DNA of 64,000 nucleotides from Escherichia coli O127:H6 str. E2348/69. Lineage in GTDB: Bacteria > Pseudomonadota > Gammaproteobacteria > Enterobacterales > Enterobacteriaceae. Below, piece by piece: positions 51,577-54,425 of this stretch; position 1 is the first letter of the stretch, and the number at the start of each line of letters is the position of its first letter. The stretch is from assembly GCF_000026545.1 (NCBI RefSeq), contig NC_011601.1. The stretch is one strand, 5' to 3'. The position numbers and the translations under genes are program-made. Under the pieces are notes generated by a model. That model was not told where the DNA came from. It was given only the letters and a program-made list of their open reading frames with translations, and did no database searches.

Positions 51577-52908
51577 TTATAGGATAAAACGGCTCAGATC
51601 TTCATCTGCCACCAACGCATCCAGATGTTTGCTCACATAATCTGCGTCAATAGTGATAGTTTGACCGCTTAAATCGCTGGCGTCGTAGGAAATCTCTTCC
51701 ATTAAACGCTCCAGAACGGTATGTAAACGACGAGCACCGATGTTTTCGGTAGATTCGTTCACCTGCCATGCCGCTTCCGCGATGCGCTTAATACCGGAGT
51801 CGGTAAACTCGATATTTACGCCTTCAGTCGCCATCAGTGCTTTGTACTGCACGGTAATAGAGGCATTCGGCTCGGTCAGAATACGCTCGAAGTCGCTGGT
51901 GGTCAGTGCCTGCAGCTCAACGCGGATTGGCAGACGACCTTGCAGTTCCGGGATCAGGTCAGACGGTTTCGCAATCTGGAACGCGCCAGAAGCGATAAAC
52001 AGAATGTGGTCAGTTTTGACCATCCCGTGTTTGGTGGAAACAGTGCAACCTTCTACCAGCGGCAGCAGGTCACGCTGAACGCCTTCACGAGAAACATCCG
52101 GACCGGAAGACTCGCCGCGCTTACAGATTTTGTCGATTTCGTCGATAAACACGATCCCGTGCTGCTCAACAGCGTCGATAGCATCTTGCTTCAGCTCTTC
52201 CGGGTTCACCAGTTTCGCCGCTTCTTCTTCAATCAGCAGCTTCATGGCGTCTTTGATTTTCAGCTTACGCGCTTTTTGCTTCTGACCGCCCAGGTTCTGG
52301 AACATGGACTGCAGCTGGCTGGTCATCTCTTCCATGCCCGGAGGAGCCATAATTTCAACGCCCATCGGTGCTGCGGCAAGATCGATCTCGATTTCTTTGT
52401 CATCAAGCTGGCCTTCACGCAGTTTTTTGCGGAATGCCTGACGAGCAGCGGACGGTTCCTGCTGCTGTTCGGTCTGTCCCCAGTTGTTTTTAGCAGGTGG
52501 GATCAGCACGTCGAGAATACGTTCTTCTGCCAGTTCTTCAGCGCGATAACGGTTTTTCTCGATAGCCTGGACGCGTACCATTTTCACGGCGGCATCGGTC
52601 AGATCGCGAATAATAGAATCCACTTCCTTACCGACATAGCCCACTTCGGTGAATTTGGTCGCTTCAACTTTGATGAACGGCGCATTCGCCAGCTTAGCCA
52701 GACGACGGGCGATTTCAGTTTTACCGACACCGGTCGGGCCGATCATCAGGATATTTTTCGGGGTCACTTCATGGCGCAGCTCTTCGTTGAGCTGCATGCG
52801 ACGCCAGCGGTTACGCAGAGCAATCGCCACGGAACGCTTGGCGTTGTCCTGGCCGATGATGTGCTTATCCAGTTCGCTGACGATTTCGCGTGGGGTCATT
52901 TCAGACAT
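51577..52908 (-). CDS. hslU: ATP-dependent protease ATPase subunit HslU
   Basis: 443 aa, Walker A GPTGVGKT. Confidence 0.95.
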
Positions 52909-52917
52909 GGGAGATCC

Positions 52918-53448
52918 TTACGCTTTGTAGCTTAATTCTTCGATGGTGTGGAAATGGTTGGTATAGATGCAAATGTCGCCTGCAATATCCAACGCCTTTT
53001 CAGCAATTTCACGGGCGCTAAGTTCAGTGTTTTCTAACAGCGCGCGCGCCGCAGCCTGGGCGTAAGGGCCGCCAGAGCCGATAGCAATAAGATCGTTTTC
53101 TGGCTGCACCACGTCACCGTTACCGGTGATGATAAGCGATGCAGTTTCATCCGCGACTGCCAGCAGTGCTTCAAGTTTGCGCAGCATGCGATCGGTACGC
53201 CAGTCTTTCGCCAGCTCAACGGCGGCTTTGACCAGATGGCCCTGATGCATTTCCAGTTTACGTTCAAACAGTTCGAACAGCGTAAAAGCATCCGCAGTAC
53301 CGCCCGCAAAGCCCGCGATGACTTTGTCGTTGTACAGACGGCGGACCTTTTTCACGTTGCCTTTCATTACGGTATTGCCCAACGTGGCCTGACCATCACC
53401 AGCGATGACCACATGGCCGTTACGGCGTACGCTTACTATAGTTGTCAC
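52918..53448 (-). CDS. hslV: ATP-dependent protease subunit HslV
   Basis: 176 aa, [20 protein letters not shown]. Confidence 0.95.
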
Positions 53449-53516
53449 GAGCTGACCCCTTGGTTACGAATACAGAGTACAAACCCCGTACAAAAGTACG
53501 GGGCATAATGCAATTA

Positions 53517-53544
53517 TAGATGGGGGGGATTTTGAGGGTTTCAA
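53517..53544 (-). promoter_or_regulatory. sigma32 heat-shock promoter of hslVU (TTGAAA -N13- CCCCATCTA)
   Basis: minus strand reads TTGAAAccctcaaaatcccCCCCATCTA, matching the sigma32 -35/-10 consensus; the -35 overlaps the ftsN stop codon. Confidence 0.65.
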
Positions 53545-54425
53545 CCCCCGGCGGCGAGCCGAATGCAGTTTGTATGACCCGCCATCTTCAAGCGATTGAG
53601 GGTGCTGTCTGCGTTCTCTTTGCCTTTCACCGGGCCAATCACCACACGATTCCAGCCATTGTTGGTGGTAATTTTTGAGTCAAAGCCTTCGAACGCCAGC
53701 TGAGCACGTACCGTCTCTGCCTGTTCCGCGCCTCTGAACGAACCGCACTGCACCATCCAGCGGCGTTCGTCTTTTTTCTCCGCCGTCGGTTTTGGCGCGT
53801 CAGCGGCACGAGCAACCGGCGCAGCTTGCTGCGGCTTCGACTGCGCGGTCGTGTGCGCAGGGGTTTGCAGCAGATCCTGGTACGGCTGCTGAGTAGAAGC
53901 CGGTTTAGACTGGCGCGGTTGCGCCTGTACCGGCGCGGCTTGCGACGTACGCGTCTGCTGCTGCCAGCTTTGTTCAGTCGTACGCGACTGCTGAGCCAGG
54001 CGTTGCTGCTCCGCTAATTGCTGCGCCTGACGCTGGCGCATATCAGCCTGCATTTGCTCAAGAAGCTGGCGTTGTTCTGGTGTCAGTTGCTCCGGCGTTT
54101 TCACTTCACCACCGGCAGAAGGTTCTGTAGGCGCACGCACACCCGGCTGGCGACTTTCCAGCTCTTTGATGTAGCGCCAGCGTTCTTCTGGTTTTGGTGG
54201 TAGTCCGTTTCCGGTCACTTTCTGGCTTTGCAGCGTCTCGGACTCTTCTTTCTTGTGATGCGTAATGAAGTACAGACCACCGATAAAGGTCACAAGAACG
54301 GCGGCAGCAATAGCGACCATAGCGGGAGAAACCGCAGGCAGATTTCGTTGCTTTTTCCGTGAGGTGCTCTTTTTTCGCCGCGAAGGTGCCGGTTGGCTGC
54401 GGCGTACATAATCTCGTTGTGCCAC
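53541..54425 (-). CDS. ftsN: cell division protein FtsN (shorter Gln-rich linker than the K-12 form)
   Basis: 294 aa, MAQRDYVRRSQPAPSRRKK, TM helix, C-terminal SPOR domain. Confidence 0.9.
   Translation of the reverse strand: MAQRDYVRRSQPAPSRRKKSTSRKKQRNLPAVSPAMVAIAAAVLVTFIGGLYFITHHKKEESETLQSQKVTGNGLPPKPEERWRYIKELESRQPGVRAPTEPSAGGEVKTPEQLTPEQRQLLEQMQADMRQRQAQQLAEQQRLAQQSRTTEQSWQQQTRTSQAAPVQAQPRQSKPASTQQPYQDLLQTPAHTTAQSKPQQAAPVARAADAPKPTAEKKDERRWMVQCGSFRGAEQAETVRAQLAFEGFDSKITTNNGWNRVVIGPVKGKENADSTLNRLKMAGHTNCIRLAAGG

Follow-up and report, generated by a model that had tools for sequence, protein, structure and literature searches.

The heat-shock promoter of the hslVU (clpQY) operon was reportedly described in 1993. 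The closest described system is the stem-loop in the 5' leader of this same operon, catalogued in Rfam as RF02401, for which the experiments were carried out on the E. coli K-12 sequence (Lien et al., 2009, Open Microbiol J 3:29; PMC2681174). Expression of a clpQ::lacZ fusion and its heat induction require rpoH and not rpoS, and this dependence was shown with lacZ fusions together with Northern blots in rpoH mutants, in which basal expression from a 141-bp fragment was reduced yet persisted (Lien et al., 2009; PMC2681174). The 141-bp fragment, which starts with CCGGGGGTTGAAA and reaches only 7 nt beyond the -35 hexamer on the upstream side, has an activity equal to that of a 478-bp fragment (Lien et al., 2009; PMC2681174), and read-through from the upstream ftsN gene is therefore not needed. 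A C-to-T change in the -10 element CCCCATCT lowered expression 1.7-fold and abolished the heat induction (Lien et al., 2009; PMC2681174).

The leader of the operon was characterized in the same study. Deletion of the inverted repeat, or replacement of one of its arms by U's, gave less mRNA and faster decay after rifampicin treatment, while a different sequence that restored the stem also restored the mRNA, indicating that the structure, and not the sequence, is stabilizing (Lien et al., 2009; PMC2681174). The constructs used for stabilization were based on pBAD33 and carried additional vector and promoter-derived 5' sequence (primer F5) (Lien et al., 2009; PMC2681174). The hairpin was thus not 5'-terminal in them, so a strict protection of the 5' end is not what those assays probed. 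For this operon, published experiments hence show that expression depends on RpoH, that the -10 element plays a role in it, and that the mRNA is stabilized by structure.

Two other groups of elements are similar in part. The 5' stem-loop stabilizers of ompA and papA (Emory, Bouvet and Belasco, 1992; Bricker and Belasco, 1999; cited in PMC2681174) resemble the hslVU leader in that the half-life of the mRNA is prolonged by the structure, and not the sequence, of a stable hairpin close to the 5' end. The sigma32 promoters of dnaK P1 and groES share with the hslVU promoter the TTGAA(A) hexamer, a 13-nt spacer, and the -10 sequence CCCCATNT, but canonical sigma32 promoters have C before TTGAAA where hslVU has G.

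The region described here lies in a window of 64,000 nucleotides (the whole stretch of DNA that was analysed) from E. coli O127:H6 str. E2348/69 (NC_011601.1). It is, with very little room for doubt, the promoter from which RpoH drives heat-shock expression of the hslVU (clpQY) operon, together with the known 5'-leader stem-loop. Both elements were already known, having been published and catalogued before (RF02401; Lien et al., 2009), and the analysis adds little in this respect since promoter and hairpin are already in the literature and curated. Its exact anatomy, K-12 identity, Rfam membership, conservation, and covariation come from the present analysis.

The genes of the window are arranged on the minus strand in the order priA-cytR-ftsN-hslV-hslU-menA. 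The ftsN coding sequence (53541-54425, minus strand) encodes 294 amino acids here and is identified by the open reading frame list, a SPOR domain (PF05036, E 6.8e-18), and the RefSeq annotation of identical DNA. The hslV (clpQ) gene (52918-53448, minus strand) starts with GTG at 53448 and encodes a proteasome-type peptidase of 176 amino acids (open reading frame list; PF00227, E 2.1e-25; RefSeq annotation), and the second gene of the operon, hslU (clpY; 51577-52908, minus strand), encodes an AAA ATPase of 443 amino acids (open reading frame list; AAA_2, PF07724, E 1.4e-36; K-12 annotation). The span singled out in an earlier note made from the sequence, 53449-53545, corresponds precisely to the stretch between ftsN and hslV together with the stop codon of ftsN. 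From the end of ftsN to the start of hslV, the minus-strand DNA reads ...GCC GCC GGG GGT TGA AACCCTCAAAATCCCCCCCATCTATAATTGCATTATGCCCCGTACTTTTGTACGGGGTTTGTACTCTGTATTCGTAACCAAGGGGTCAGCTC GTG, in which AACCCTCAAAATCCCCCCCATCTATAATTGCATTATGCCCCGTACTTTTGTACGGGGTTTG begins the intergenic stretch after the TGA and AAGGGGTCAGCTC directly precedes the GTG of hslV. The hslVU promoter takes its -35 region from GGG GGT TGA, the last codons of ftsN. Over 191 nt surrounding the site, the sole difference from E. coli K-12 MG1655 is one synonymous-looking base inside ftsN; the comparison with the K-12 promoter region that the earlier note had called for thus returned base-for-base identity to MG1655, and the element shows no difference from the one used in the RF02401 experiments. 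Among 5,426 complete E. coli genomes, the 401-nt region sits between annotated ftsN and hslV in 5,425.

The sigma32 promoter has its -35 hexamer TTGAAA at 53539-53544 and its -10 element CCCCATCTA at 53517-53525 (both minus strand). The -10 sequence CCCCATCT occupies 53525-53518, and the spacer between hexamer and -10 (53538-53526) is 13 nt long, the same as in dnaKp1. The -10 assignment is further supported by the published C-to-T mutant and by conservation as CCCCATNT in nearly all loci, and the -35 hexamer does not vary among the 45 aligned species. The 64-kb window contains a single exact TTGAAA-N12-15-CCCCATNT, where shuffled sequences would lead one to expect 0.03. The ftsN stop TGA (53543-53541) falls within the hexamer (53544-53539), so that both statements of the earlier note, a minus-strand sigma32 promoter of the form TTGAAA-N13 plus -10 and a -35 element overlapping the ftsN stop, are borne out, the first of them by the exact motif, its conservation, and the published rpoH genetics. 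The base before TTGAAA is G and not the consensus C, because this base is the middle of the last glycine codon of ftsN; the coding overlap costs the promoter one consensus position.

A run of seven C's (53522-53528, minus strand) covers the last bases of the spacer and the first of the -10 element, thereby setting the -35/-10 spacing. It is nearly fixed, with six C's in 17 of 5,426 complete E. coli genomes and eight in none, and sequencing errors in the homopolymer may account for some of the six-C variants. Heat-evolved laboratory strains were reported to have lost 2 bp of the C run (PMC10044804). Further downstream, the Shine-Dalgarno sequence AAGGGG (53456-53461, minus strand) is placed 7 nt before the GTG, lies in the conserved block AAGGGGTCTGCTCGTG, and is outside the hairpin in the predicted fold.

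For the comparison across species, 80 loci were collected with HslV as bait and one genome per species, and 77 of them have an ftsN-like SPOR gene upstream. The TGA stop is embedded in TTGAAA in 67 of these 77 loci, and -35, -10, and stop overlap occur together likewise in 67 of 77. The exceptions to the overlap are Budvicia, two Pantoea assemblies, and the outgroups from Vibrionaceae and Alteromonadales. In the Vibrionaceae, the upstream gene is followed by a distinct terminator and a separate promoter; for instance, Photobacterium has a separate hairpin-plus-U terminator and then a CTTGAAA...CCCCAGAT promoter. The sequence GGGGTTGAAA is invariant in the 45-species alignment, and with it the wobble bases of GGG GGT, the two glycine codons ahead of the ftsN stop; this invariance suggests that the coding sequence of ftsN is under promoter constraint. 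The double use of the stop codon and the -35 element is old and has been retained in most Enterobacterales. The overlap behind the compact arrangement of the earlier note, in which ftsN read-through and heat-shock initiation would share DNA, is real and conserved in most of this order. The breadth of this conservation is new, and the locus is a clean case of coding and promoter constraints sharing the same DNA. A pairing between GGGG at the end of ftsN (53545-53549) and CCCC of the -10 element (53522-53525), proposed by RNAalifold in 45 of 45 species (alignment columns 3-6 and 27-30), was set aside: both sides are invariant and show no covariation, and the pairing is uninformative because both sides are invariant for other reasons.

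The transcription start of hslV has been placed at different positions. It was put 71 nt upstream of the GTG, which corresponds to C53519 and falls inside CCCCATCT (Lien et al., 2009; PMC2681174). Another study recorded in its Table S1 a single 454 5'-end read for hslV at -61, 6 nt from the "known" start (Mendoza-Vargas et al., 2009; PMC2760140), and the 6-nt offset implies a database start at -67, which is A53515. The -71 position is physically implausible for the present -10 element, and -67 is likewise too close to it.

Comparative data and promoter geometry bear on the same question. All 45 aligned species have A at position 53509, and 42 of them have a pyrimidine, C or T, at 53510. A pyrimidine followed by a purine is the usual start pair. 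In the dnaKp1 scaffold used for the structure of the sigma32 open complex, the A of CCCCAT is at -11, a geometry that would place the hslV start at C53510 or A53509; from the A of CCCCAT to A53509 the distance is 12 nt, compared with 11 nt in the scaffold. The most likely start of hslVU is therefore A53509 (minus strand), 61 nt upstream of the GTG, giving a 61-nt leader, as supported by the one read together with the invariant A and the sigma32 geometry. A mapped start inconsistent with the promoter elements had been named as the result that would speak against them; the older -71 and the implied -67 are indeed inside or just after the -10 element and do not fit, while the sequenced -61 end does. 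This discrepancy between -61 and -67/-71 is new, with comparative data and one 5' end favoring -61, and database entries may need correcting given that -71 is inside the -10 element. A usable hslV entry was not found in the start-site supplements of Cappable-seq (PMC4782308), Kim et al. (2012), Cho et al. (2014), and Conway et al. (2014). A second 5' end was listed 449 nt upstream of hslV, at about 53897 (minus strand), with a frequency of 3 and a sigma38-like -10 GCCAGTCTAA (PMC2760140); it is on the sense strand inside ftsN and could feed transcription toward hslVU.

A perfect sigma70-type -10 hexamer, TATAAT (53513-53518, minus strand), overlaps the sigma32 -10 element and is 20 nt from TTGAAA. 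It might be argued that the non-stress start at -61 comes from sigma70 acting through TTGAAA and this TATAAT (53518-53513), which would make the promoter a dual sigma32/sigma70 one. Table S1 of Mendoza-Vargas et al. assigns the -61 start to exactly this pair with a spacing of 20 (PMC2760140), the basal expression that remains in rpoH mutants comes from the 141-bp fragment (PMC2681174), and the 2-bp deletion of the heat-evolved strains would give a spacing of 18 nt (PMC10044804). However, a 20-nt spacing is beyond the usual range of sigma70, and a sigma70 scan with spacings of 16-18 nt found no promoter here. A53509 is just 4 nt past TATAAT, too close for sigma70 and suited to the sigma32 geometry, and the basal expression itself is lowered in rpoH mutants (PMC2681174). 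In the 45-species alignment, TATAAT is not conserved outside Enterobacteriaceae, unlike CCCCATNT, which is. A dual promoter is thus unlikely, though it is the alternative that survives best, and the use of TATAAT by sigma70 is at best a weak basal contributor beside the sigma32 promoter.

The leader of hslVU contains the inverted repeat CCCCGTAC/GTACGGGG at 53503-53496 and 53491-53484, which has 8-nt arms with 100% complementarity and a 4-nt loop, a pattern with no chance matches in shuffled sequences. The hairpin (53483-53504, minus strand) consists of the 8-bp core CCCCGUAC-UUUU-GUACGGGG (53503-53484) and a closing pair G53504-U53483, and is supported by the inverted repeat, the fold, covariation, and the published mutants. 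The earlier note had the arms and the place in the hslV leader right, while its loop, given as "aaaa", is the plus-strand reading, and the mRNA has UUUU; the arms read identically on both strands, and the slip in the loop alters nothing else. The predicted fold of the 61-nt leader has 5 unpaired nucleotides followed by a 9-bp hairpin (-21.8 kcal/mol, z -3.4). The energy of the hairpin core is about -16.5 kcal/mol. The core hairpin begins about 12-16 nt past the -10 element in those loci whose fold isolates the core.

The Rfam model RF02401 (ClpQY_promoter) matches 53446-53503 on the minus strand with a score of 63.6 bits (E 1.8e-12; gathering score 42), covering model positions 1-57 of 57, and the match spans the hairpin, the remaining leader, the Shine-Dalgarno sequence, and the GTG. 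The window element is hence the full RF02401 model at the same site upstream of the GTG of hslV. Of 20 diverse Enterobacterales loci scored with the model, 8 exceeded its threshold. Among those below it are several lineages whose hairpins are long or interrupted (Photorhabdus, Rahnella, Proteus, and Siccibacter), with a hairpin still at the same place.

Pairing of the hairpin has been maintained through changes in sequence. Over the 45 species, 93.3% of the cells are paired, and changes on both sides are found in 57 cells. Two-sided changes are seen in seven of the nine pairs, a result matched by 0 of 500 shuffles, and controls slid along the alignment were 41-55% paired. The arm sequences differ between species with the pairing kept, for example CCCCGCAC/GTGCGGGG, CCCTGAGC/GCTCAGGG, and CTCCGCGC/GCGCGGAG. 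The extended lower stem of the published structure (-24.6 kcal/mol) has no comparative support in this alignment, being 57.7% paired, and the covariation backs the core of 8-9 bp only and not the published extended stem. The covariation statistics and the lack of such support for the extended stem are new.

Much longer hairpins were seen at the same position in Serratia, Yersinia, Rahnella, and Photorhabdus. Pectobacterium zantedeschiae (locus L048, 2320-2500) has about 139 nt between the conserved CCCCG...CGGGG arms, and five Photorhabdus loci (L042, L046, L050, L052, and L063) have leader structures of 54-93 nt. All six retain the promoter and the stop overlap, and L042 is below the Rfam threshold when scored.

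Taken in order, RNA polymerase with sigma32 recognizes TTGAAA (53544-53539) and CCCCATCT (53525-53518) and most probably begins transcription at A53509, which would give the 61-nt leader. The transcript would then carry 5 unpaired nucleotides followed by the 9-bp G+C-rich hairpin (53504-53483) near its 5' end, and the hairpin lengthens the life of the hslVU mRNA by its structure rather than its sequence. We infer the precise start site and the mechanism by which nucleases are blocked: the hairpin would hinder RNase E from entering at the 5' end or scanning from it. Obstruction of scanning may suit the pBAD33 constructs better than a strict masking of the 5' terminus. In ompA-type stabilizers, as reported by Emory et al. 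in 1992, no more than about 2-4 nt separate the start of the stem from the 5' end. The stem of hslVU differs from those of ompA and papA in being preceded by about 5 unpaired nucleotides, given a start at A53509, and would in that case be a little further in than the ompA-type rule allows.

A wider role for the hairpin may also be considered, in which it is a multi-purpose protector of RNA ends, serving the 5' end of hslVU mRNA, the termination of ftsN where a U-tract follows, and the 3' end of an antisense transcript, with slippage in the seven-C run acting as a dial between sigma32 and sigma70 control, of the kind met in the heat-evolved strains. This reading is speculative and somewhat less probable than the dual promoter.

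More doubtful still is the proposal that the hairpin is mainly an intrinsic terminator of ftsN that insulates hslVU, its effect on hslVU mRNA being secondary. With intrinsic terminators it shares a G+C-rich stem of 8-9 bp and a 4-nt loop, and no other terminator-like structure is present on the minus strand from the ftsN stop to hslV. A run of 4-7 U's follows the hairpin in 11 of 45 species, namely Dickeya, Pectobacterium, Tatumella, Rosenbergiella, and some Pantoea and Erwinia, giving it the look of a canonical terminator in these members of the Erwiniaceae and Pectobacteriaceae; moreover, the Vibrionaceae have a clear separate terminator downstream of the upstream gene. In E. coli, however, the G+C-rich stem is followed by UUUGUACU, and the U-tract is missing in most Enterobacteriaceae although the hairpin is conserved. 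The site was not called in a terminator scan of the window, and in the complete set of curated 3' ends that Adams et al. (2021) obtained by Term-seq under three growth conditions, no sense-strand end falls at the hairpin. In addition, a strong terminator 6 nt past the hslVU start would stop the hslVU transcripts as well. With this tail, no scan call, and no sense 3' end, a terminator role for ftsN is unsupported in E. coli, and the hairpin is better read as the stabilizer of hslVU mRNA.

The only entry at this place in the Term-seq table is an RNA 3' end on the opposite strand, at K-12 position 4122347 (plus), which is 53508 in the window (Adams et al., 2021). This plus-strand end is antisense to hslV/ftsN, is 5 nt beyond the hairpin, and lacks a U-tract; it probably reflects an antisense transcript whose 3' end was trimmed as far as the hairpin. 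The same base is where a chance open reading frame on the plus strand (53236-53508) terminates.

The position of the hairpin in the leader of a heat-shock gene could also suggest an RNA thermometer or translational switch that governs the access of ribosomes to hslV, the more so as an opened hairpin would leave its CCCC arm free, in principle, to pair with GGGG in the Shine-Dalgarno sequence. This is very improbable, and it was rejected, since neither the Shine-Dalgarno sequence (53461-53456) nor the GTG is sequestered, both being placed outside the stem-loop by the predicted fold, and a 9-bp G+C-rich stem with a core of about -16.5 kcal/mol would not melt at 42 C. Covariation favors the hairpin pairing itself, and a thermosensitive segment was not reported by Lien et al. 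(PMC2681174). Lastly, that motif and inverted repeat are functionless chance matches is next to impossible: short consensus matches do arise by chance (1.9 expected per window when two mismatches are allowed), but the exact match (0.03 expected), the 67 loci of distant genera, the covariation, and the published genetics refute it.

The upstream gene differs from its usual form in this strain. The ftsN product has 294 amino acids here compared with 319, as a result of a 75-bp in-frame deletion with its junction at 54032/54033 (minus strand). The deletion takes out K-12 residues 132-156, which belong to the glutamine-rich periplasmic linker, and is flanked by short GCGCCA repeats. The deleted 75 bp are present in 5,422 of 5,426 complete E. 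coli genomes, and the exact junction is found in only three of these 5,426, all of them E2348/69 / O127:H6.
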